Positions 3,250 to 64,000 of a stretch of DNA of 64,000 nt are shown here, piece after piece. The number at the start of each line of letters is the position of its first letter. The first letter of the stretch is position 1. A model generated the notes under the pieces. That model saw nothing but the letters and a program-made list of their open reading frames with translations, was not told the DNA's origin and did not search any database. Location of the stretch: positions 129,237-193,236 of the forward strand of contig DAHVCP010000026.1 of the NCBI GenBank assembly GCA_027314025.1, in the 5' to 3' direction. The stretch comes from Acidobacteriota bacterium (lineage in GTDB: Bacteria > Acidobacteriota > Terriglobia > Terriglobales > SCQP01). A program made the position numbers and the translations under genes.

Positions 3250-3264
3250 GCAATCCGCGGGCCA
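3250..3264 (-). promoter_or_regulatory. Candidate sigma-54 (-24/-12) promoter for the GT2-GtrA / GT-C / epimerase operon
   Basis: The minus strand reads TGGCCC-GCGGA-TTGC, with correct GG-N10-GC spacing. The -12 element lies about 37 nt upstream of the ATG at 3213. Confidence 0.4.
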
Positions 3265-3665
3265 CCTGCCGCAGCTCGGCAGCCGTGGATAAGATCCTTG
3301 CCAACAGTGAGTTGCGGCATTCGCCCCGGAGGCGTTCGCATGTTTTTGTCGCCCCCTTGCGGCCATGGCGGCCACAATTTGTCAGCCGCCGCCGTGGCCC
3401 CCCTGGGCGCATGCGCCGGGCCGCGTCGGCGCCCGGCCGGATGGCGGCGCGGTCAGGAATTGTCAAGCTAACTCTCTGCTGGGGAAAGCATTTTCCCGCG
3501 ACGGCAATGGCCTTCCCGCGCTCCTCTGCCGCTTGCCCGCCACCGGCCCTCGGGGAGCTCCACGATTGAGTCTGCAAACTCTTGCATTTGTTCATCTTGG
3601 GCACGCTTCCGCCGTCCCGCAGAGGGCCCGCGGATGTTTGGCCCACTAGCTGCTCTATCGGGAGA

Positions 3666-4706
3666 ATGATGGCCACGGAACCACTCATTGCCTCGGCGGT
3701 GGGCAACCCGCTCCCTCCGGAAGAGGTCGTGTTTGGCGTCTCTCCGGCAATGGCTCCGGTCCGGCAGTTAGTCGGCAAGGCCGCCGGCGCCAACATCCCG
3801 GTGCTCATCCGCGGGGAAAGCGGGACCGGCAAGGAGATCATTGCCACCCTGCTGCATGAACAATCCCCGTGGGCCGCGGGTCCGTTGGTGAAGGTGAACT
3901 GTCCGGCGATTCCTGGTTCCCTGGTGGAGAGCGAGCTGTTTGGCTATGAGAAAGGCGCGTTTACCGGCGCCCAGGTCGCCAAGCCCGGACGCGTCGAGGC
4001 GGCGCACGGCGGCACGCTGTTTTTGGACGAAATCGGCGATCTCGACCCGTCGCTCCAGGCGAAGCTGTTGCAGCTGTTGCAGGACGGGAACTTCACTCGC
4101 ATCGGCTCAGCCAGCGATAAACATGTCGAGGTGCGAGTGGTTTGCGCCACCAACCGTCCTCTCGAGGAGGAGATGGCCGCGGGTGGTTTTCGGCGCGATC
4201 TGTACTATCGCATCAACGCCATCACGATTCATCTCCCACCCTTGCGCGAGCGCAGCGCGGATATTCCCATGCTGGTGGAATACCTCCTCGAGTACTACAC
4301 GCGCAAGTATAATCGCCAGCCCGCGCCGTTGTCGGCCTTGATCATGGGTGAGATGTGCCGCAATTCCTGGCCGGGAAATATTCGCCAGTTGGAAAACCTG
4401 ATCCGCAGATACGTGATCGTGGGCTCCGAGGATGTGATCTTGGCGGAGTTATTGAGCCGCTCCGACGATTGGGCGCTGCCCGTGCCGAACGGGTCCTGCT
4501 CGCTCAAAACCGTGACGCGCGAAGTGGTCGCCAAGGTGGAGCGGAAATTCATCCTGCGAGCGCTACAAGCGGCCAATTGGAACCGGCGTCGCGCCGCGGG
4601 AGCGCTCAATATCAGTTATCGCTCCCTGTTGTACAAGATCAAGGAGGCGGGCATTCCGCCGCACCGCAGCCCGGTGCGCAACAACGTGCAGCGCGAAGAG
4701 GCGTAG
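3666..4706 (+). CDS. Sigma-54-dependent transcriptional activator (bacterial enhancer-binding protein): AAA+ domain plus Fis-type HTH, with no N-terminal receiver or sensor domain
   Basis: Motifs are Walker A GESGTGKE, GAFTGA, Walker B LFLDEIGDL and a C-terminal HTH (AAGALNISYRSLLYKIKEAGI). Only about 50 residues precede the AAA+ core. The start was set at ATGATG 3666. Confidence 0.85.
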   Translation: MMATEPLIASAVGNPLPPEEVVFGVSPAMAPVRQLVGKAAGANIPVLIRGESGTGKEIIATLLHEQSPWAAGPLVKVNCPAIPGSLVESELFGYEKGAFTGAQVAKPGRVEAAHGGTLFLDEIGDLDPSLQAKLLQLLQDGNFTRIGSASDKHVEVRVVCATNRPLEEEMAAGGFRRDLYYRINAITIHLPPLRERSADIPMLVEYLLEYYTRKYNRQPAPLSALIMGEMCRNSWPGNIRQLENLIRRYVIVGSEDVILAELLSRSDDWALPVPNGSCSLKTVTREVVAKVERKFILRALQAANWNRRRAAGALNISYRSLLYKIKEAGIPPHRSPVRNNVQREEA

Positions 4707-4736: not shown

Positions 4737-4765
4737 AAAAAAAAGGGAGCACGCACGGCGCTCCC
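4737..4765 (-). terminator. Rho-independent terminator candidate for the minus-strand exosortase operon
   Basis: The minus strand reads GGGAGC-(9 nt)-GCTCCC followed by T8 (A8 at 4737-4744 on the plus strand). It lies about 175 nt downstream of the stop of the 4942-5328 gene. Confidence 0.45.
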
Positions 4766-4941
4766 TGAAGTGCAAATGTCTGGCGCGTTCGCGCCCTCGG
4801 CTAGTGCCCAAAAAAGTTCCGCGGGTTCGCCTCGTCGCGGTGGCGGTGGTGCGCAACACCTCCAATGCGCGCGTGCTGCTCTCCCCCTGGCGACCTCCGA
4901 GCGGCGGCAGCCTGGGCGATGCGAGGCGGCCGGCGCCGAAT

Positions 4942-5328
4942 CTACGGCACGACCGCGGTGGCTTGGTTGGAATAGGCGCTCTGGACGCCGCCCGAGGTCA
5001 CTGCCGCCGTCACGTAGTAGTAGGTGTTTTTCGCCTGCACCGTCTTGTCCGTGTAGGTCGTGTTCGTAATCGGCGAGCTGGTCAGCGCCTTGTAGGGTCC
5101 GCCCGACTTCGTGCTGCGGAACACCATGTAACCCGCCACGGAGGACGTGCTGGCGGCCCAGGACAGCGACACGGAATGGGTTGTCGTCGCGCCGCCGCCG
5201 TTACTGTTGCTGCTGGAAGAACTGCTGGAACTGGAGGCGAGTGACGCGGCGCCGCCGCATCCCGCCAAGCCGAGCAGCAGCGGGGCGGCAATCAGGGCAA
5301 CGGTGAGCGAACGAAGGATTCGGTTCAT
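4942..5328 (-). CDS. Small lipoprotein with a poly-Ser linker and one fibronectin type III-like domain
   Basis: The signal peptide plus lipobox is LLLGLAGC. A run SSSSSSSSSNSNGGG is followed by SVSLSWAAS...GYMVFRS...YYYVTAAV...SNQATA, an FN3-like pattern. Confidence 0.6.
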   Translation of the reverse strand: MNRILRSLTVALIAAPLLLGLAGCGGAASLASSSSSSSSSNSNGGGATTTHSVSLSWAASTSSVAGYMVFRSTKSGGPYKALTSSPITNTTYTDKTVQAKNTYYYVTAAVTSGGVQSAYSNQATAVVP

Positions 5329-5441: not shown

Positions 5442-6218
5442 TCAGCTAGGCGGCGGAGACCCGTCCGGCGCGTACCCCAGTTCGGCTTCCGTATCGGGCG
5501 TGGCATTCGACCACCGCAGCCACAGCCGATGATAGCGTTCGTCGCCGAGCACGGCCTGTAGGCTGCGGGCCGCCAGGCGCCGCAATCGCTGCCGGCCGAG
5601 CGCGGCGGGCTTGGCGGCAAGTCGCGCGGCGATATCAGCGGCGGTATCGTGCCGGCGGGCCATGTAGCGCCCCAGGACCTCCACTCCGGCCAGGACCCGG
5701 GGCTGGGCGCCTGCCTCCGAGGTGAACACTCGGGCATAGCCAGCCTCGGCGCACGCCGCCACGACGCTCCCGTTCCAGCGTCCGGCCGGCATGGAGATCT
5801 CGCTGACCTCCCGTCCGATCCGGTCTTCGATCACTTGCTTGGACCGGCGCAACTCCTCATGCAGCTGTCTGCGGTCGCAGGCGGGCAGAAACACATGCGA
5901 CCAACCATGCGATTGCACCGAGTGCCCGAGGTCGGCGAGTGCCGACAGCTGGCTCCAGCTGAGAAATCCGGCCCGCGCCCCGATCCATGCCGCGGTGATG
6001 AATAACGTGGCCTTGGCGCCGCGGGCTTCCAGCCGGGGCAAAGCGTATTCGAAAATGGAGGCGTCGCCGTCGTCGAATGAGATCGCGGCGTCCGGGGGCA
6101 GGCGCGCGGCGGCCGGCGCCAGCACCTCTAAATGCGCCGCAAACTGTTCCGGCGTGACGGAATACAGGTAGCGCGCGGACTCACTGGGCCGAATCTGATG
6201 ATAGGTGAGGTGGAACAT
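5442..6218 (-). CDS. Polysaccharide deacetylase (NodB / CE4 family)
   Basis: Motifs are ISFDDGDASIFEYALPRLEARGAKATLFI and HGWSH, the NodB-homology metal/catalytic motifs. Confidence 0.75.
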   Translation of the reverse strand: MFHLTYHQIRPSESARYLYSVTPEQFAAHLEVLAPAAARLPPDAAISFDDGDASIFEYALPRLEARGAKATLFITAAWIGARAGFLSWSQLSALADLGHSVQSHGWSHVFLPACDRRQLHEELRRSKQVIEDRIGREVSEISMPAGRWNGSVVAACAEAGYARVFTSEAGAQPRVLAGVEVLGRYMARRHDTAADIAARLAAKPAALGRQRLRRLAARSLQAVLGDERYHRLWLRWSNATPDTEAELGYAPDGSPPPS

Positions 6219-6364: not shown

Positions 6365-8629
6365 TCAGTGGGCGGCCAGAATGCGCTGCGCTTCCGGGCG
6401 TTGGCGGAGCGCTGCGTTCAGCCGCACTGCGGCGGAGAGCGCAACCCGCGCCTCCCGTTTGTGGCCGTCCGCGAACAGCGCCTCGGCTAAATGGAAATGG
6501 AACATCGCGTTTTGGGGTTGCTGCTCGACCGCCGGCCGCAGGAGCGCAATGGCGCTGGCGTTCAGGTGCATTTTGAGATAGACCGTAGCCAGCGTATCGG
6601 CGACCGTGGGCACGTTCGGCAGCGCATGCAGCGCCCGCTGCGCCAGCACCATCGCTTGCGGCAGGTCACGCCCCTGTTTCGCGTAGAGATAGGCAAGATT
6701 ATTGTTCGCCACCCCGGAATCGGGCGCGATGGCCAAGGCGCGCCGGTAGTCGCGTTGCGCCTGAGCCTCGTCGCCGTTCTGCTCGGCAATCATTCCGAGC
6801 ATGGTCCATAGGCCGGCATTGTGGGGATGGCGCCGGAGCGCGGCGGCGTATTCCGCCTCCGCTGCGGACAGCTTGTGGTCTTGGGCGTAGAGGCTGGCGA
6901 GGAGCAGATAGGGCGTCAGGCTCGCGGGAGACAGCCGCACCGCGCGTTGCAGCGTTTGCTCCGCGTCCTCGGTCCGGTGTTGCCGGGCATAGAGGCTGGC
7001 GAGCAGTTCATCGAGCGGCGCGGTTTCCTGCCGGCGGACCTGGCCGCGCACCAGCTGGAGAGCGGCGCCGGGATGGCCCTGGGCAAGCTGCACGTTGGCC
7101 AGCCCAGCCACCGCCGCGGGATCGCCCGGCGCCAGCCGAAGCGCTTGCTGAAACTGCTGCTCGGCGGCCGGATAGTCCCGTCCCCGCAAGTACGCGCCGC
7201 CGAGGCGTAGGTACGGTTGAGGAAGACGGGGAGCCAGTTGCTCCGCCTGACGCCAGTCCTTGGTGGCCGCGAAATTCTGGTGCAACTGGGCTTCCGCGTC
7301 ACCTCGCACCAACCATGTCCCGGCAAATTGCGGCTGCCATGCGCTGGCCTGGGTGGCGTAGTCGAGCGCTTGGTTCGGATGGCCTTGGGCCAGCAGCAGC
7401 CGCGCCAGTGCGGCGGCGGCCAGCGCATCGCGGGGGTGGGCGCGGAGCGATCGCTGATAGGATGCGACGGCCTTCATGGGTTGGTGCAACTGGGTGTAGG
7501 CCTGTCCCAGCAGGTCATCCACCGCGGGGAGACCGGAATTGAGTTGATGCGCGGCGGTTAAGTCTTGCAGCGCCGCTTGGCTCTGGCCCAAAGCCAATTC
7601 GATCCGCGCCCGCAGCAGGCGCACCGCCGCTTGGTGGGGATGTTCTTGCGCCAACGCGTCCGCTAAGCTCCGTGCGCGGGCGGTGCGTCCCTGCGCGAAG
7701 TCAATTTCGATCCGCTGCAGGCGCGCGGGCAGAAAATTCGGCGCCGCATGCGCCAGCGCGGCATCAATCGCTTTGGCCTGCTGAGGATGCCCCTGGCTTT
7801 CCAGGAAGCGGGCCAGGGCAAAGCGCGCCGCTGGGGCGCCATGTTCCAGACGCACCACGGCGCGCAGGGCGGCCTCGGCGCGCCGCGGGTGATGCTGCTC
7901 CGCGTAGAACATGGCCAGCGTGCCGCGGGCTTGGGCGGAGCGGGGATGGGCCTGGACCGCCGCCAGCAGCTCCCGCTCCGCGGCCCCGGGATGGTGCTCG
8001 CTCAGATCCAGTCCGGCGAGCTCCCGCCGCGCCTCCAATGAGCCGGAATTGATGGCGAGCACCTGGTTCCAGGTAGCGCGCGCCCCGGCCGAATCGCCCC
8101 CCGCCAGCTCCACCGCGCCCAGCGCCAATAGTCCCGGCTGGAACCGCGGTTGGCGGGCGACCAACGCCCGCAGCAACTTCCGCGCCTCCGGCGCCTTCCC
8201 TTGCCGCGCCAGCGCCGCGGCAAGCAGGATGGTGGCATTGCCATCGCCGGGGTGCTGGGCCAGCACCGCCTGGGCGTCGGCCTGGGCCTTGGCCGTTTGC
8301 CCCGCGGCCAGTTCGATCCGTCCGGCCGCGAGCCGGGCCGCGGCGTCAGCCGGGCGCAACTGGACCGCCTGGCGATATTCTCTCAGCGCTAAGCCGAACT
8401 GCTCCTCGCGGGCGTAGGCGCGGGCCAGGCGGACGTGCAGCGCCGCGGACTGCGGCGCAATCCGCAGTGCGTTGCGGAGTTCGATGACGGCGGCGGCATA
8501 CCGCCCGCTCCGCATGTCGGCGCGGGCTTGCGCCCGGAAGTGGGCTTCCCGCTGGGCGGGGCTGCTGCATCCGGCAGCGGCGGTGAGGAGAACCGCCGCC
8601 GCGGCGAGAAAAAGGAGATGGCGTTTCAT
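6365..8629 (-). CDS. prsT: PEP-CTERM-system TPR-repeat lipoprotein (PrsT-like)
   Basis: The start was reset to MKRHLLFLAAAAVLLTAAAGCSS (lipobox). The remaining roughly 730 aa are TPR repeats throughout. Its ATG overlaps the exosortase stop (ATGA at 8626-8629). Confidence 0.7.
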   Translation of the reverse strand: MKRHLLFLAAAAVLLTAAAGCSSPAQREAHFRAQARADMRSGRYAAAVIELRNALRIAPQSAALHVRLARAYAREEQFGLALREYRQAVQLRPADAAARLAAGRIELAAGQTAKAQADAQAVLAQHPGDGNATILLAAALARQGKAPEARKLLRALVARQPRFQPGLLALGAVELAGGDSAGARATWNQVLAINSGSLEARRELAGLDLSEHHPGAAERELLAAVQAHPRSAQARGTLAMFYAEQHHPRRAEAALRAVVRLEHGAPAARFALARFLESQGHPQQAKAIDAALAHAAPNFLPARLQRIEIDFAQGRTARARSLADALAQEHPHQAAVRLLRARIELALGQSQAALQDLTAAHQLNSGLPAVDDLLGQAYTQLHQPMKAVASYQRSLRAHPRDALAAAALARLLLAQGHPNQALDYATQASAWQPQFAGTWLVRGDAEAQLHQNFAATKDWRQAEQLAPRLPQPYLRLGGAYLRGRDYPAAEQQFQQALRLAPGDPAAVAGLANVQLAQGHPGAALQLVRGQVRRQETAPLDELLASLYARQHRTEDAEQTLQRAVRLSPASLTPYLLLASLYAQDHKLSAAEAEYAAALRRHPHNAGLWTMLGMIAEQNGDEAQAQRDYRRALAIAPDSGVANNNLAYLYAKQGRDLPQAMVLAQRALHALPNVPTVADTLATVYLKMHLNASAIALLRPAVEQQPQNAMFHFHLAEALFADGHKREARVALSAAVRLNAALRQRPEAQRILAAH

Positions 8630-9576
8630 ACGGGCTCGTGAGGTTCGAGGCGCGCGGCGCCCGGCGGCGGTTCCAGTGTGCGCCGCGATTGTTCTCCGCG
8701 CCGCAGCCAAAGCAAGAGCGGCCACAGCAGAACTAAGGCGATCAGGAAGAAGACAAAGCCGCCCTCCCGGTGCAACCGGCCGTAGAGAAAGCCGCGATTC
8801 ACATGCAAAGCCAGCAGGCAGAGGGTGCAGATGCGGATCGCGTTCTTCACCGCCGAAAAGGGAATCGCGACCAGCACCAGTACGGCGCGGCGCCAAGGCG
8901 AGCGCAAATAGAAATATCCAGCCAACAGGGCGGTGATGGCCAGGGCTTGGCTGGAGCGGATGCTGCTGCATTCCTTGGCGACGTGGATCGTAATGGTGGG
9001 AATAAAGAGGTCAAACCCTTGCCGGAAGACCGGCACGCCCAAGACGCCGAAGAACCAGGCGCACATGTGCGTCGAGCCCGCTTGTAGCCAAAAGATGGAA
9101 CGGTCGAGCAGAAATGGCGGAAACGGGATGATGAGCAGAAGAAACAGCCAGGCAAACAGCCCGGCCTGGAAGACCCGGCGGCCGTATATGGCGCAGACCC
9201 CGGCAAAAAGAAACAGCACCAGGCTGAGGGCGAGCAGGCTCAGGTGATCGGCATACGGCACCCGCCCCGCCCATCCCAGGGCCCAGCCCAGGCTCAGGGC
9301 GCCAACGGCGGCGAAACTCGCCGCCGCCAGCCGGTCGCGGCCAGGGTGCGCGAAGATGGATCGCCGCTCGGTCCACAGCAGGTAAATGGAGACGAACGGA
9401 ATCAGGGGAATGTAGGAACAAAAATCGTTGCCCAGGGCGAAGGCCAGCAGTTCGCGCAGGGGCTGCGCGAATAGGGCCAGCAGCGCCGCGAAATAAATTA
9501 TCAGGGCGCGGCGCCGCCGCGGGTCTGCGGCGGTGCTGGCGCGGGAGGCGGAAGGGGTTTCAGTGGCGGGGTTCAC
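8626..9576 (-). CDS. Exosortase (EpsH/Xrt family transpeptidase); subtype not assigned
   Basis: A polytopic membrane protein with the exosortase active-site region VAKECSSIRS and a downstream NAIRI...LHV. GTG at 9576 was chosen as the start; the ORF-track N-terminus is Arg/Pro-rich junk overlapping the upstream gene. Confidence 0.75.
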   Translation of the reverse strand: MNPATETPSASRASTAADPRRRRALIIYFAALLALFAQPLRELLAFALGNDFCSYIPLIPFVSIYLLWTERRSIFAHPGRDRLAAASFAAVGALSLGWALGWAGRVPYADHLSLLALSLVLFLFAGVCAIYGRRVFQAGLFAWLFLLLIIPFPPFLLDRSIFWLQAGSTHMCAWFFGVLGVPVFRQGFDLFIPTITIHVAKECSSIRSSQALAITALLAGYFYLRSPWRRAVLVLVAIPFSAVKNAIRICTLCLLALHVNRGFLYGRLHREGGFVFFLIALVLLWPLLLWLRRGEQSRRTLEPPPGAARLEPHEPV

Positions 9577-9619
9577 GGCGAGGGGCGGTCTCAATGCTGG
9601 GGCGGTGGTACTCGCGCAG

Positions 9620-10663
9620 CTAGCGCGGAGACGAAGCGCCGGAGCGGGCGTCCACCATCGGGGCGGATGCCAGAGCCGGGGTGGTCGCCATCGGCCGCGC
9701 CGCCAGATAGTCGAGCCAGTTCTGGTACAACCGTACCGCATCCACCGCCCAGTTGCATTCGAGCTGCGCGGCGATGGGGCCGTCCGGGAACTCGGCGAGC
9801 AGCGCGGGATCGGGGCGCGCCAGCGCCTGCCGCTCGAATGCCGCCAAGGACCGCGTGGATTCGGGATCAAAGTAGTTGTGCGGCAGCGACGGGTAGTCCG
9901 GGCGCTCGCCGCGCAGAAAGCGCCGCACGTCGCGCCGGTATTCCTTGAGCAGCGTGGCGGCGTGATATTCCGGATGGCCCTGGAGGTGGACGAACAAACT
10001 GCGGCCGCGCGGCTTGACGAACAGGCCCGTGCCGGCCCCCGGCGCGTGGGTCAGGACGGTGTAGCCATGGAGCGCGAGATCGGCTTGCCGCAGATCATTC
10101 CAGCGCGAGTGGGGAAAGTAGACGGTGGGACGGGCCCCGCGCGTCAGCGGGTGCGTCTGCGCCACCTGCTCGGCAAACACGCCGATGCGCTTCCGGGCCA
10201 GCGGCTGGCGCGGGATCCCGCTTTCCTGCAAGACGGCGGCATGGGCCGCCAGGCAGGACAAAACCGCCGAGTGCGTGTGGCTCTCGGCCCAGCGCAGCAG
10301 CTCCACGAGTTCCGGCCAATACGCCTCGGCCCGCAGATCTGGCTGCAAGGGCTCGGCGCCCGTGATGATCACGCCGTCATAGCTGCGGTTGAGCAGCTCG
10401 GCAAGGCTGAAATACGCGTGGTCCAGCCGGGCTCGCGCCTCCGGCCCGCGCGGCACCGCCGGCAGATAGTGAAACGCCAGCTGCACCGGCCGCTCCCCGG
10501 CCGCCGCCGTGAGCAGTGCGGTGAACTGCTCCTCGGTGTCGGCCAACGCGGCGTCCGGCATGTTATTGACCAGCGCAATGCGGAGGCCGGCGCGGGCCGG
10601 GCCAGTGGCCCGCCCACGCGGGGTGGGGCGCGACGATGGCGGATGCTCAATGGCGACGGGCAT
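9620..10663 (-). CDS. metA: Homoserine O-acyl(succinyl/acetyl)transferase, MetA family
   Basis: Motifs are LRIALVNNMPD, a catalytic-Cys region (SAVLSCLAAHAA) and LQGHPEY. The start was reset to MPVAIEH at 10663. Confidence 0.75.
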   Translation of the reverse strand: MPVAIEHPPSSRPTPRGRATGPARAGLRIALVNNMPDAALADTEEQFTALLTAAAGERPVQLAFHYLPAVPRGPEARARLDHAYFSLAELLNRSYDGVIITGAEPLQPDLRAEAYWPELVELLRWAESHTHSAVLSCLAAHAAVLQESGIPRQPLARKRIGVFAEQVAQTHPLTRGARPTVYFPHSRWNDLRQADLALHGYTVLTHAPGAGTGLFVKPRGRSLFVHLQGHPEYHAATLLKEYRRDVRRFLRGERPDYPSLPHNYFDPESTRSLAAFERQALARPDPALLAEFPDGPIAAQLECNWAVDAVRLYQNWLDYLAARPMATTPALASAPMVDARSGASSPR

Positions 10664-21103: not shown

Positions 21104-21119
21104 GGGAAAATGATTTCCC
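21104..21119. promoter_or_regulatory. Perfect inverted repeat GGGAAA-ATGA-TTTCCC about 100 nt upstream of the 20994-21008 promoter; possible activator/UAS site
   Basis: Seen directly in the sequence. The position relative to the -24 element is typical for enhancer sites. No shared motif with the other promoters was found. Confidence 0.25.
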
Positions 21120-26187: not shown

Positions 26188-26363
26188 AGGAAATTTTCAG
26201 GCTCGGCTACCGATGGGCGGCGGTGCGGCGCGGCGAGGTGCTGCAAGGTTTTGCAGACAGCGGGAAGGCATTGGGCCACCCAACGGGGGCGGGAAAGCCG
26301 GGGGCCGCAGGCCCAGCCCGGCGCGTAAGCGGCGCTCCGCGCCGCGCCAATTAAAGCGGGACA

Positions 26364-28823: not shown

Positions 28824-28838
28824 GCAATTTTTGTGCCA
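28824..28838 (-). promoter_or_regulatory. Sigma-54 (-24/-12) promoter, consensus match, driving the GT2 operon
   Basis: The minus strand reads TGGCAC-AAAAA-TTGCG, a perfect TGGCAC-N5-TTGC. It lies 56 nt upstream of the ATG at 28768. Confidence 0.7.
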
Positions 28839-46040: not shown

Positions 46041-47023
46041 GCGCGGCCTCCGAGGGCGGCGGCGACCGGGGCGGCGGCGGCCAACTCCGCGCGGAAAAAG
46101 GCGATGGTCCGCTCCAGGCCGTCGCGGGCGGCTACCTGGGGGGTCCAGCCGAGCAGACGCTGGGCGCGGCGAATGTCCGGGCAGCGGCGCTTAGGGTCGT
46201 CTTCCGGCAGCGGGCGGCGGACGATGCGGCTGCGGCCGCCAGCTAGCTCAAGGACCAGGCGGGCGATGGCCTCGACGGTCATCTCCACGGGGTTGCCGAG
46301 GTTGATTGGGCCGGACGCGCCGGGCGCCTCGGGCGCCTGCTCCAGGACCGCGATAATTCCGGCGACCAGGTCGCTGACATAACAGAGGCTGCGGGTCTGG
46401 CTGCCGTCGCCGTAGACGGTGAGGTCTTCCCCGCTGAGGGCCTGGACGATGAAGTTGGAGACGACGCGGCCGTCGTTGGGCCGCATGCGGGGGCCATAGG
46501 TATTGAAAATGCGCACGACGCGGGTGTCCACGGCCTGGCTGCGGCGGTAGGCGAAGGTGATGGCCTCGGCGAAGCGCTTGGCTTCGTCGTAGACCGAGCG
46601 CGGGCCGATGGGGTTCACCTGGCCCCAATACGATTCCGGCTGGGGGCTGACCTCGGGATCGCCGTAGACCTCCGAGGTGCTGGCGAGGAGGAATCGCGCT
46701 TGTTTTTGCCGCGCCAGCTCGAGGGCGTTCTCGGTGCCGCGGCTGCCGACGCGAAGGGTAGCGAGGGGATGGCGGAGGTAATCCACGGGGCTGGCGGGGG
46801 AGGCGAAATGGAGGACTGCGTCCACGGGTCCGATGACGTCGCAGCGCTCGCTGACGTCCACCTGCTCGAAGGCAAAGCCGGACTGGCGGGAGAGCGCGGA
46901 GACGTTCTCGGCGCGGCCACTCAGCAAGTTGTCCAGGCAGTGGACCTGGTGGCCAGCGGCGAGCAGGCGCTCACAGAGATGGCTGCCGACAAACCCCGCT
47001 CCGCCGGTGACGACGACTCGCAT
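46037..47023 (-). CDS. uxs: UDP-glucuronate decarboxylase (UDP-xylose synthase)
   Basis: Motifs are [45 protein letters not shown] and [10 protein letters not shown]...DGRVVSNFI. Confidence 0.8.
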
Positions 47024-47035
47024 AGGATTCCTTGG

Positions 47036-48517
47036 TTAGCGAACGGCCTCGGCGAGCGCGGCCCGAGGATGGGCCGGGGCGGCGGCTTGAACGGGTGCGG
47101 CCGTCGGCGCGGCCGTCGTTGCGACCCCTGAGATGGCTGTACTTGGCGCCGCCTTCCTTGACGCGGCCGCTTTGGCGGCTTTGCCGATGCCGACGCATTG
47201 GATGCCGTGGGCGGCGAGGCCGGCGGCGGGAAGGGCGTTGCGGCCGTCGAAGATCAGCGGGCGGGCCATGGCGGCGGCGACGCGGGCCCAATCCAGATGC
47301 TGGAACTCCTTCCATTCGGTCAGGAGCAGGGCGGCGTCAGTCTGCTCGGCCGCCGCGTAGGCGTCAGCATGAAGGTGGATGGCGGGCAGCTCGCGCTGGG
47401 CCTTTTCCATGGCCTGCGGGTCGTAGGCATGGACTTCCGCGCCCTCGGCCAGCAACTGGCGGACGATGGCGATGGCGGGGGCGAAACGGACGTCGTCGGT
47501 CTCCGGCTTGAACGCCAGGCCCCAGACGGCGATCTTTTTGCCGGAGAGCGTCCACAGCTCGTCACGAAGCCGTGCGATGAAGCGGTCCACGCGGGCGAGG
47601 TTGATGGCCTCGACCTGCTTGAGGAGCCCGAAGTCGCAGCCGAAGTTCTCGGCGATTCGCACGAAGGCCTGAAGGTCCTTGGGGAAGCAGAAGCCGCCGA
47701 AGCCGATGCCGGGGCGCAGGAATGCGGCGCCGATGCGGCGGTCGCCGCCGATGCCCTGGACGACGCTGTCCACGTCCGCGCCAGCGGCTTCGCAGAGGTC
47801 CGAGACCATGTTGATGTAGGAGATCTTCATGGCCAAGAAGGAATTGGACGCGTGCTTGATGAGTTCCGCGCTGTTTGTGTCGGTGACGATGAAGGCGGCC
47901 CGGGCGCGGCCCGGCGGGCAGGCGGCGTGGACGGGGCAGGCGAAGGACTGCTCAAGCACGGGGCGGTAGATTTCCTCCATCAGGCGGCGGGCGCGGTCGG
48001 ATTCGGCGCCGACGACGATGCGGTCGGGGTGGAAGAAGTCCTCGACGGCGGAGCCTTCGCGCAGGAACTCGGGGTTGGAGACAACGTCGTATTCCAGGCT
48101 GCCGCGGCCGTAGATTTCCAGGTGGCGGCGGAGGCGCTGGCCGGTTTGGACGGGGACGGTGCTTTTCTCGACGATGAGGCGGTAGCCCTGGGCGTGGCGG
48201 GCGATCTCGCGGGCGACGGACTCGATGGCGGAAAGGTCGGCATCGCCGGTGGCGAGGGGCGGAGTGCCGACGCAGATGAACAGAGCGTCGCCGTGCTCGA
48301 AGGCTTGGCCCGCGTCCACGAAACGCAGGCGGCCGTTGGCGCGGGCGGTTGAGACGATGCCGTCCAGGCCGGGCTCGTAAAACGGCATGCGACCGGATTC
48401 CAAGACGACAAGCTTGCCGCGGTCACTGTCGGTGCAGCGCACGTCGTGCCCGATGTGCGCCAGGCAGGCTGCGGTGGTCAGCCCAACATAACCCGCTCCG
48501 ATGACGCTGATCTTCAT
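47036..48517 (-). CDS. ugd: UDP-glucose 6-dehydrogenase
   Basis: The start was reset to [12 protein letters not shown] at 48517. Motifs are [14 protein letters not shown] and [10 protein letters not shown]. There is an Ala/Pro-rich C-terminal tail. Confidence 0.8.
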
Positions 48518-54092: not shown

Positions 54093-54108
54093 GTGCAAGT
54101 GTTTGCAC
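54093..54108. promoter_or_regulatory. Perfect inverted repeat GTGCAA-GTGT-TTGCAC about 110-125 nt upstream of the 54217 promoter; candidate enhancer (UAS)
   Basis: Seen directly in the sequence. An AT-rich stretch (54150-54180) lies between it and the promoter, as expected for a bend or IHF region. Confidence 0.35.
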
Positions 54109-54216: not shown

Positions 54217-54232
54217 TGGTACTGTACTTGCA
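54217..54232 (+). promoter_or_regulatory. Sigma-54 (-24/-12) promoter driving the PEP-CTERM protein gene
   Basis: TGGTAC-TGTAC-TTGCAT on the plus strand, about 60 nt upstream of the ATG at 54292. Confidence 0.7.
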
Positions 54233-54291: not shown

Positions 54292-54642
54292 ATGCTCAAA
54301 CGTTTCCCCCCCTTTACCCAAGCCGTTGCCCTCGCTGCTTTCTTGGCCCTTGCGATGGGGTTGAGCGCTCGTCCGGCTTGGGCGGGCACGATTACCAGTC
54401 CGACACAGGTGAGCTTCAGCCAGACGAACGCCTATGGCATGGGCAACTTCAACCTGTATTCGGGCAGCTTGTATCAAACGGGCACGGATCTTAGCTCGAA
54501 TACCTTCAGCGTCACCGATGGCGCGTACAGCCCGGCGGCGCAGCCGGTGTCGGCTCCGGAGCCGGCGAGTTGGCTGCTGTTGGCGGCAGGACTTGGCGCG
54601 CTGGGATTGGCCGCGCGGCGCCGCCGCGTTTCCTGGCCCTGA
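54292..54642 (+). CDS. Small secreted PEP-CTERM-anchored protein (exosortase substrate)
   Basis: The signal peptide ends ARPAWA. A mature region of about 57 aa is Ser/Thr/Gly/Asn-rich. The C-terminal sorting signal is VSAPEPASWLLLAAGLGALGLAARRRR (PEP motif, TM helix, Arg cluster). RBS GGGAG lies 12 nt upstream. Confidence 0.85.
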   Translation: MLKRFPPFTQAVALAAFLALAMGLSARPAWAGTITSPTQVSFSQTNAYGMGNFNLYSGSLYQTGTDLSSNTFSVTDGAYSPAAQPVSAPEPASWLLLAAGLGALGLAARRRRVSWP

Positions 54643-59719: not shown

Positions 59720-59822
59720 CTGGATGGAACACGCCAGAAGTAAAGTCATTCCGGGTTATCAGCCGGGGCGGCCACTCAAAAGCTAAACTCGGCGGGCAGC
59801 TCGATCGCCCGCTGGGGAGTTC

Positions 59823-61346
<1,524 letters not shown>

Positions 61347-61498
61347 AGAGAACGTGGCGCGATCTCCGCCTCGGCGGAGAACGTTCGCGTCCACACCGTC
61401 CCGGCCTCTCTGGGCCCGGACCATGGCTTACTTTCACCCCTCCGCCCTCGGCGGAGCGGCGTGTTCCTCCATCCTCGAATCCTTTTGTGGCCGCCCGC

Positions 61499-61574
61499 GG
61501 GGCTGTAGCTCAGTTGGGAGAGCGCCTGATTTGCATTCAGGAGGCCGTCGGTTCGATCCCGATCAGCTCCACCA
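61499..61574 (+). tRNA. tRNA-Ala (anticodon UGC), CCA encoded
   Basis: Cloverleaf folded by hand. The acceptor stem GGGGCUG/CAGCUCC carries the G3:U70 identity pair. The anticodon loop is UUUGCAU and the T-loop is UUCGAUC. Confidence 0.9.
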
Positions 61575-61614
61575 GTTTGGCGCCGGGATCTCCGCTCCAC
61601 CCGCCCGCGCCCGC

Positions 61615-61691
61615 GGGCCTGTAGCTCAGATGGCTAGAGCGCACCCCTGATAAGGGTGAGGTCGGTAGTTCGATTCTACCCAGGCCCACCA
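61615..61691 (+). tRNA. tRNA-Ile (anticodon GAU), CCA encoded
   Basis: Cloverleaf folded by hand. The acceptor stem is GGGCCUG/CAGGCCC, the anticodon loop is CUGAUAA and the T-loop is UUCGAUU. Confidence 0.9.
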
Positions 61692-61766
61692 CCCGCGCTT
61701 CGCCGCCACCCACCGGATTCGTCCCGCCCTCGGCGGGACCGCTCGCGCCCCAGGGCGCGGCGCATC

Positions 61767-61778
61767 GCTGTTTGACAA
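61767..61778 (+). promoter_or_regulatory. Spacer boxA-like antitermination element upstream of 23S
   Basis: GCTGTTTGACAA, identical to the leader copy at 59708-59719. Confidence 0.55.
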
Positions 61779-61901
61779 CCGAATGATTGCAAGTGATTGG
61801 GCAAAACCAAGTTCCCTTCCGGCCGAAAACCGCCGGAAGGAAAGCGCGAATGGATGAAGGATCCAAATCCCCGGAACCGATGAGGCCCCGGGTGAATTTG
61901 T

Positions 61902-64000
<2,099 letters not shown>

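Follow-up and report, generated by a model that had tools for sequence, protein, structure and literature searches.

How is a sigma-54 activator controlled when it carries no domain that could receive a signal? The question is raised by a gene for an enhancer-binding protein (EBP), which we call EBP-A, close to one end of a 64-kb stretch of DNA from the acidobacterial order Terriglobales (the window, corresponding to C3:129237-193236 in a 3.81-Mb genome that is 97% complete) that also holds genes for an exosortase and for exopolysaccharide (EPS) production. Acidobacteria rank among the most abundant bacteria in soil, with exopolysaccharides that influence aggregation and persistence there; we know of nothing on the regulation of EPS or PEP-CTERM protein production in this phylum, and a literature search returned no paper that combines Acidobacteria, exosortase and sigma-54. 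The original prediction, made from the window sequence, proposed that the locus is controlled either by an anti-activator or simply by the abundance of the EBP. We favour the latter, and put at roughly 55% the probability that EBP-A is active constitutively, its amount in the cell being governed by a sigma-54 cascade or by feedback.

A sigma-54 activator with no signal domain

The EBP-A gene and the elements of its protein are placed as follows.

3669..4706 (+): EBP-A gene, encoding a 345-aa receiver-less sigma-54 activator (AAA+ core, lid and Fis-type helix-turn-helix, HTH), from Pfam and NCBIfam scans and a conserved start
3711..3737 (+): tail motif LPPEEVVFG, abutting the AAA+ core, family consensus (L/I)PP(E/D)xV(I/V)FG, from alignment of the N-termini of the 117 closest homologues
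3813-3836 (+): Walker A, GESGTGKE, by motif location
3954..3971 (+): GAFTGA sigma-54 contact loop, intact, with EKGAFTGA at residues 94-101
4017-4040 (+): Walker B, LFLDEIGD, by motif location
4581..4652 (+): DNA-binding helices of HTH_8, NRRRAAGALNISYRSLLYKIKEAG, from Pfam, alignment and motif location

On the translation from ATG 3666, Pfam assigns Sigma54_activat to residues 23-189 (218.5 bits against a cut-off of 20.2), AAA_lid_14 to residues 194-265 and HTH_8 to residues 288-327, and finds no further domain at E<=1; scans for receiver, GAF, PAS and V4R domains in the protein were likewise negative. Walker A, GAFTGA, Walker B, sensors I and II and the arginine fingers are all intact, and the picture of a domain-minimal activator with a Fis-type HTH is borne out. 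EBP-A consists of an AAA+ core and a DNA-binding domain with no N-terminal regulatory domain, and is thus a type Ic enhancer-binding protein, one without a signal domain.

One figure in the original prediction does change. About 50 residues had been allotted to the region ahead of the AAA+ core, whereas a footprinting comparison with L092 and L093, the two closest loci (their EBP-A proteins are 87% and 85% identical to that of the window), identifies the second ATG, at 3669, as the conserved start, and this reduces the N-terminal tail to about 21 residues. L093 has GTG in place of the first ATG, at 3666. The same comparison indicates that 3573-3653 is conserved regulatory DNA and not coding, within conserved blocks that span 3482-3653. 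The statement that the frame is open back to 3582 only is correct: an in-frame TGA lies at 3567-3569, the earliest possible start is TTG 3582, and 3582-4706 is the only long plus-strand open reading frame (ORF) in that stretch with coding-type third-position GC (GC3). At most 54 codons are available between the upstream stop and the AAA+ core, and no longer start encoding a receiver was found there.

Six-frame searches of the whole genome gave no match to Response_reg or HATPase_c inside the window, in agreement with the earlier remark that it holds no PrsK-like kinase. Indeed, neither PrsK (TIGR02916, best score 103 bits against 300) nor PrsR (TIGR02915, best score 442 bits, on C36, against 502.6) is present at its cut-off anywhere in the genome. 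Sigma-54 itself is encoded by a complete rpoN (C6:99-1721), whose 540-aa product carries the activator-interacting (AID), core-binding (CBD) and DNA-binding (DBD) domains. EBP-A matches no NCBIfam equivalog at its cut-off: it scores 290 bits against 502.6 for PrsR, aligned only to the post-receiver model positions 141-438, and falls short of both PspF models (TIGR02974, 237 bits against 443.55; PRK11608, 206 against 529). Among solved structures, those of the NtrC4, ZraR and NifA type stand nearer to it than PspF does (PDB scores of 260 bits for NifA, 240 for NtrC4, 230 for ZraR and 177 for PspF); the AtoC model scores 309 bits.

A uniformly receiver-less family

The short architecture is not peculiar to this genome. 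The best 120 database matches are all 338-395 aa long, have the same three domains and are 60-99% identical to EBP-A; in the 117 closest homologues, Walker A is reached after 37-78 residues (median 51), and the space between upstream stop and core in 31 orthologous loci is 18-109 codons. In a maximum-likelihood tree of 125 EBP cores, EBP-A falls in a clade of 30 rows (SH-aLRT, the Shimodaira-Hasegawa-like approximate likelihood-ratio test, 100), all of them from Acidobacteriota and every one receiver-less. We define this clade as monophyletic short EBPs with an (L/I)PP(E/D)xVIFG tail, at least 50% mutual identity and a sigma-54-type promoter before the gene, and the window protein belongs to it by its position in the tree, its tail motif and its promoter. 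Three more clades join it in the same supported group (88): receiver-containing EBPs (22 rows, support 99), the small clade EBP-B (described below) and short EBPs of Desulfobacterota and Myxococcota. The members of the last of these, also receiver-less (L035, L036, L073), likewise adjoin Poly_export or EPS genes, but their own genes have no sigma-54 promoter in front.

An EBP-A orthologue (E<=1e-100, 50-99% identity) is found in 120 of 201 sampled Terriglobales genomes, about 60%; in many complete genomes the identity is 50-64%. An exosortase is present in 106 of these 120 genomes and in 27 of the 67 without EBP-A, an odds ratio of 11 with a p-value that is overstated, the sampled genomes being related and not independent. 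At most EBP-A loci, genes for an exosortase, EpsI, a PrsT-like protein, a PEP-CTERM protein, a deacetylase or Poly_export lie within 10 kb. The EBP-A family is linked to exosortase/EPS loci. In another genome of the same genus (G043, contig C111), a 99%-identical EBP-A is followed 59-78 kb further on by an EBP paralogue (52% identity) and by a second exosortase, in a 608-aa frame.

Sigma-54 promoters and upstream palindromes

The region between the EBP-A gene and its divergent neighbour contains two sigma-54-type promoters and two palindromes, which we regard as predicted enhancers and designate upstream activator sites (UAS).

3639..3653 (+): sigma-54-type promoter of the EBP-A gene, TGGCCCactagCTGC, conserved in the window, L092 and L093
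3573..3586 (no strand): UAS-1, TGCAAactcTTGCA, with a 52-nt spacer to the EBP-A promoter, conserved in L004, L092, L093, L094 and L017
3482..3497 (no strand): UAS-2, GGGAAAgcatTTTCCC, in the divergent region between EBP-A and GT2
3250..3264 (-): sigma-54-type promoter TGGCCCgcggaTTGC (TGGCCC-N5-TTGC), 36 nt before ATG 3214 of the GT2-GtrA operon, conserved in the window, L092 and L093
2065..3214 (-): GT2 + GtrA glycosyltransferase gene, divergent from the EBP-A gene, start ATG 3214

The EBP-A promoter and both palindromes are conserved islands within an otherwise divergent intergenic region. With up to 3 mismatches allowed, a GG-N10-GC motif stands 5-75 nt ahead of the coding start in 25 of the 31 orthologous loci, where the background level is 3.4% per locus; the binomial P of about 1e-31 is overstated, since the loci are related. 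The motif was not found before the short EBP genes of Desulfobacterota, nor is there a -24/-12 motif before the kinase operons considered below, and on the strength of these two controls we take its occurrence before EBP-A genes to be specific. In its longer form, TTTGGCCCactagCTGC (3636-3653), the window promoter resembles the PEP-CTERM promoter TTTGGCCCctgagTTGCA of locus L006. Its -12 GC stands only 15 nt before ATG 3669, from which a near-leaderless mRNA would follow; the same geometry is seen in L004 and before EBP-B on contig C51, and the distance is 33-60 nt in other clades.

UAS-1, TGCAA-N4-TTGCA, has six exact copies in the 3.81 Mb of the genome, four of them within two EPS loci: three in the window, one in a divergent region of C51 and the other two elsewhere. 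The window holds both of the exact copies of UAS-2, GGGAAA-N4-TTTCCC, that the genome contains, and a one-mismatch copy lies beside the UAS-1 of C51. Among the related loci, at least 20 of 31 have an xGAAA-N4-TTTCx site 170-240 nt ahead of the EBP-A gene. A scan of the 64 kb for TGGCAC-N5-TTGC gave a single exact match. The remaining sites in the window are listed here.

54094..54107 (no strand): UAS-1, TGCAAgtgtTTGCA, upstream of a PEP-CTERM gene, with a 109-nt spacer to its promoter
54217..54232 (+): sigma-54 promoter of the PEP-CTERM gene, TGGTACtgtacTTGCA, one mismatch, 60 nt before the gene
54292..54642 (+): PEP-CTERM protein gene, 116 aa, C-terminal end ...APEPASWLLLAAGLGALGLAARRRR
26242..26255 (no strand): third exact UAS-1 copy, about 200 nt upstream (minus strand) of TGGCCCttgatGTGC (26041-26027) and of the aspartokinase gene, ATG 25835
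21104..21119 (no strand): second exact UAS-2 copy, 105 nt upstream of TGGTCAaccacTTGCA (21008-20993, minus strand), itself about 110 nt before ATG 20882
28824..28838 (-): TGGCACaaaaaTTGC, matching the sigma-54 consensus exactly, some 55 nt ahead of ATG 28768 of a long EPS operon, from the scan

The association of UAS-1 with PEP-CTERM genes extends beyond the window. A second PEP-CTERM gene, on C62, is preceded by a one-mismatch UAS-1 and a -24/-12 motif, and UAS-1 together with a sigma-54 promoter therefore stands before two of the four PEP-CTERM genes of the source genome, of which the 116-aa gene at 54292-54642 is likely a member of the regulon. In L006, UAS-1 precedes PEP-CTERM, PrsT-like and PilZ genes, and is followed by a clear sigma-54 promoter at the PEP-CTERM and PilZ genes and by merely an off-spacing -24/-12 match at the PrsT-like gene. 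We rejected one further candidate, TGGCACatcggTCGC (25826-25812, minus strand): its TGGCAC element is near consensus, and it lies inside the aspartokinase coding sequence, in the GGTSV codons of MKFGGTSV (ATG 25835).

A kinase/receiver-EBP pair and a paralogue lacking GAFTGA

Divergent from EBP-A and 2-3 kb upstream of it, 22 of the 31 related loci encode a HisKA/HATPase kinase together with a receiver-containing EBP (receiver-EBP). These receiver-EBPs are 44-49% identical to EBP-A, and their tree mirrors that of EBP-A. In the source genome the orthologous pair is found on another contig, C51, with a receiver-EBP that is 52-57% identical to those of its relatives and a 308-aa kinase (L090:7392-8318, minus strand) made up of HisKA and HATPase_c and lacking any transmembrane or sensor region. 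Eleven loci (L008, L011-L014, L027, L030, L034, L037, L038 and L081) have a UAS-1-like palindrome ahead of the kinase gene, at a distance of 60-200 nt (some 740-826 nt upstream of the EBP-A gene); because essentially no -24/-12 motif lies between palindrome and gene in these 11, the site may be an operator, not an enhancer, and may act as an autoregulatory operator on a sigma-70 promoter.

The C51 pair is divergent from a second short EBP.

L090:8898-9830, equivalent to C51:~46897-47829 (+): gene for EBP-B, a 331-aa short EBP

EBP-B, also without any N-terminal domain, is the first gene of an operon that continues with Poly_export, Wzz-GNVR, AAA_22, CbiA and Bac_transf. In EBP-B and its L006 counterpart the L1/GAFTGA loop is deleted, while Walker A, Walker B and the HTH are retained, and without the loop neither protein can make the usual contact with sigma-54. 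Upstream of its gene are a UAS-1, a UAS-2-like site and TGGCAGtgcagGTGCA, about 20 nt before the likely ATG. EBP-A, EBP-B and the receiver-EBP have in common the recognition helix ISY(R/K)(A/S)LLYK(I/L)(K/R), and EBP-B is a candidate modulator of EBP-A. The genome also has a third short EBP, of 333 aa, near the start of contig C19 (L091:346-1347); its GAFTGA is intact, its HTH differs and it is not closely related to EBP-A. The uniformly receiver-less family, the kinase and receiver-EBP neighbouring it in 22 of 31 loci and the GAFTGA-less paralogue are three points that the original prediction missed.

Probable control by abundance

The model that we prefer can be followed from the top of the cascade to its output. 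Consider a cell in which EBP-A is absent. Because the EBP-A gene has a sigma-54 promoter and enhancer-like palindromes of its own, its transcription would need an active EBP, and because a gene with a sigma-54 promoter alone cannot start itself from zero, the co-inherited kinase and receiver-EBP (on C51 here, adjacent in most relatives) would be the natural trigger. The pair could stand at the top of the cascade, since the kinase operon has no -24/-12 motif and is apparently sigma-70-driven. Control would thus act on the synthesis of EBP-A, through the conserved -24/-12 promoter and the two related upstream palindromes, and the protein would be active once made; indeed, it is most likely active as made, because it keeps all the motifs for ATP hydrolysis and sigma-54 remodelling and has no domain to hold it inactive. 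EBP-A could then add positive feedback on its own gene and, alone or with its paralogues, would act on the sigma-54 promoters of an exosortase/PEP-CTERM/EPS regulon that would include the PEP-CTERM protein genes bearing the same TGCAA-N4-TTGCA site. Regardless of which paralogue binds which palindrome, control by abundance holds. A precedent for the activity of such a protein exists in the NtrC1/DctD class, where the receiver represses assembly and its removal leads to constitutive activity.

Several points weigh against this model. The evidence for it is computational throughout, and the relatedness of the sampled genomes, noted above, tempers the association with exosortases. Some NtrC-type EBPs need their receiver in order to assemble, and the loss of a receiver alone is no proof of constitutive activity. 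The window promoter is a weak match to the consensus (TGGCCC/CTGC) and requires the near-leaderless mRNA. The absence of a sigma-70 consensus promoter before the EBP-A gene, a point in favour of the model, comes from a scan with E. coli hexamers, which may miss acidobacterial promoters. Neither UAS-1 nor UAS-2 was found near the strongest promoter of the window, at 28838, where only an unrelated GCGCAacTGCGC sits about 45 nt upstream. Finally, the recognition helices are too alike for UAS-1 and UAS-2 to be assigned to individual paralogues.

Alternative explanations

The alternative that we take most seriously, although we consider it unlikely, is that control of EBP-A is post-translational and exerted by another protein, either an anti-activator resembling PspA or HrpV, or EBP-B, acting through mixed inactive hexamers or through competition at shared DNA sites. 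The receiver-less EBPs that have been characterised are usually regulated in trans (Francke 2011, PMC3162934), and EBP-B has much of what such a partner would need: GAFTGA is missing, yet Walker A, Walker B and the shared recognition helix are retained, and both palindromes and a -24/-12 motif precede its gene as well. A search of the 97%-complete genome for PspA_IM30 (PF04012), however, gave no match, the compared loci have no small gene in common beside EBP-A that could encode a partner, and EBP-B was seen in only three of the examined loci and may not be universal. Of the two ways of control first proposed, then, abundance gains from the promoter in 25 of 31 loci and from the palindromes, and the anti-activator finds no support, in that neither PspA nor a conserved small neighbour was found. 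A partner could, moreover, run alongside control by abundance and need not replace it. A bolder version of these ideas, which we think improbable as a whole, places the exosortase/PEP-CTERM slime regulon of Terriglobales under a three-paralogue, EBP-only circuit, composed of the receiver-EBP with its sensor-less kinase, the receiver-less EBP-A and the GAFTGA-less EBP-B. The three would have one recognition helix in common and use a pair of sister palindromes (TGCAA-N4-TTGCA and GGAAA-N4-TTTCC); both short EBP genes would be sigma-54-dependent, feed-forward and positive feedback would form a bistable switch and EBP-B would be a built-in anti-activator. If this is true, regulation of a polysaccharide system by EBPs alone would be without a described example.

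It is very unlikely that EBP-A instead senses a small molecule, such as cyclic di-GMP (c-di-GMP), in the manner of FleQ, through its AAA+ domain or its LPPE tail. EPS regulators such as FleQ do bind c-di-GMP in the AAA+ domain, the (L/I)PP(E/D)xVIFG tail is conserved, and the L006 module is flanked by GGDEF and PilZ genes, one of the latter with UAS-1 and a perfect sigma-54 promoter. The window has no such GGDEF/PilZ context, however, and no arginine-containing LFRS-like motif stands ahead of the EBP-A core. The c-di-GMP contacts of FleQ, which from its structure papers we take to include an R-N pair after Walker A, speak against FleQ-type sensing too, because in the alignment EBP-A has T and L (KEIIATLLH) where FleQ has R185 and N186 (KEVVARNLH). 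That the short form is an artefact, a mis-called start hiding a receiver or the remnant of a decaying pseudogene, is scarcely credible. The longest ORF does reach TTG 3582, and gene callers assigned longer versions to L092 (366 aa) and L093 (358 aa), but the TGA at 3567-3569 leaves just 54 codons ahead of the AAA+ core, conservation of the DNA upstream is of a regulatory and not a protein-coding kind, and the six-frame searches gave no Response_reg match in any frame, which speaks against a receiver hidden by a frameshift as well; decay is contradicted by motifs that are all intact and by a family retained in some 120 of 201 genomes at 50-99% identity. Constitutive activity with control by abundance is, in our view, the account that these observations fit best.

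The exosortase/EPS locus

The window had been described as a PEP-CTERM locus, and rightly so. Beyond the 116-aa PEP-CTERM gene, the following genes lie convergent with the EBP-A gene.

5442-6218 (-): polysaccharide deacetylase
6365-8971 (-): PrsT tetratricopeptide repeat (TPR) protein
8626-9870 (-): exosortase, the only one in the genome

PrsT is over the cut-off of its model (TIGR02917, 325 bits against 312), and the window also holds many glycosyltransferases and Wzx- and Wzy-like genes; its surroundings are a genuine exosortase/EPS locus. On the other side of EBP-A, the start of the GT2-GtrA gene is set by a conserved N-terminus, MISLIIPTYN, in the window, L092 and L093, and downstream of it are a 509-aa gene of no known function and an epimerase gene.

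Three further features of the window were noted. A small lipoprotein gene (4942-5328, minus strand; 128 aa, with the lipobox LAGC, a Ser/Gly-rich linker and an FN3-like domain) sits between the EBP-A and deacetylase genes and is kept in L092 and L093; its atypical GC pattern at the first and second codon positions (GC1/GC2) makes it easily overlooked. At 4744-4766, 38 nt past the EBP-A stop codon, a GC-rich hairpin is followed by a minus-strand T-run, likely the terminator of the deacetylase/lipoprotein operon. An rRNA operon occupies the end of the window (59822-64000), with 16S at 59822-61341, two tRNAs at 61499-61688 and 23S from 61902.

Comparison with known systems

EBP-A offers a well-defined entry point into the regulation of EPS in a major soil phylum, and a natural case in which to ask how an EBP derived from receiver-containing ancestors works after the receiver is lost. 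It also provides a testable regulon model beyond the proteobacterial PrsK/PrsR system, one with an EBP family, two palindromes, several mapped -24/-12 promoters and a candidate two-component pair. How much of this has a counterpart elsewhere is best seen by setting it beside the systems that it most resembles.

By sequence, the closest relatives of the AAA+ and HTH regions are NtrC1, NtrC4, ZraR and AtoC, and the palindromic sites are predicted enhancers of the NtrC style; all of these proteins, however, carry the receiver that EBP-A lacks. By architecture, EBP-A belongs with the type Ic receiver-less class exemplified by PspF, HrpR/S and LafK (Francke 2011, PMC3162934). With PspF of E. coli it has in common an AAA+ core and HTH, a short N-terminal tail, the absence of a regulatory domain and the constitutive activity expected of PspF, but it is not a close relative (237 bits against 443.55 for TIGR02974) and the genome has no PspA. 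The gene pspF, moreover, is transcribed by sigma-70 and negatively autoregulated, whereas the EBP-A gene has a sigma-54 promoter.

The model that we propose is nearer in its logic to HrpR/HrpS and the HrpX/HrpY-hrpS-hrpL cascade of Erwinia and Pantoea, in which the EBPs are also receiver-less and owe their output mainly to how strongly they are expressed under a two-component system, and in which paralogous short EBPs work together. The likeness is one of design and not of orthology: HrpY is not an EBP, the target is a sigma factor gene for a type III secretion system (T3SS), the phylum is another, no HrpR or HrpS family model is among the NCBIfam matches listed for EBP-A, the context here is EPS/exosortase and not T3SS, and the HrpV anti-activator has no detectable counterpart. 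For EBP-B alone, the comparison is with TyrR, DhaR and VpsR, which lack GAFTGA (Francke 2011, PMC3162934), as EBP-B does with its deleted loop, and of which VpsR is also a polysaccharide regulator; the GAFTGA of EBP-A in the window is intact.

In function, the nearest system is PrsK/PrsR/PrsT, the PEP-CTERM regulatory system of Proteobacteria (Haft 2006, PMC1569441), and genetics in Aquincola and Zoogloea has established that PEP-CTERM regulation is RpoN-dependent (PMC9850573). There, and by prediction here, sigma-54 control of PEP-CTERM genes relies on an activator site that some 50-110 nt of spacer separate from a -24/-12 promoter downstream, in an exosortase/EPS context, and PrsT itself is present here. 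The differences lie in the regulators. Neither PrsK nor PrsR reaches its cut-off, the EBP at the locus is receiver-less, and the C51 kinase, a 308-aa HisKA+HATPase protein, lacks the membrane domain of PrsK. The activator site of the PrsR system is a 17-nt motif ending in TTTACA, in place of which we find the TGCAA-N4-TTGCA palindrome; and where the proteobacterial system has a single PrsR, this one has a set of three EBP paralogues, with an EBP-A gene that itself appears to be sigma-54-dependent. Thus, a receiver-less class of EBPs and the control of PEP-CTERM genes by sigma-54 in Proteobacteria were already known, and what the acidobacterial sequences appear to add is a receiver-less EBP working without PrsK/PrsR, through another enhancer motif, from a gene with a sigma-54 promoter of its own and in the company of two paralogues.

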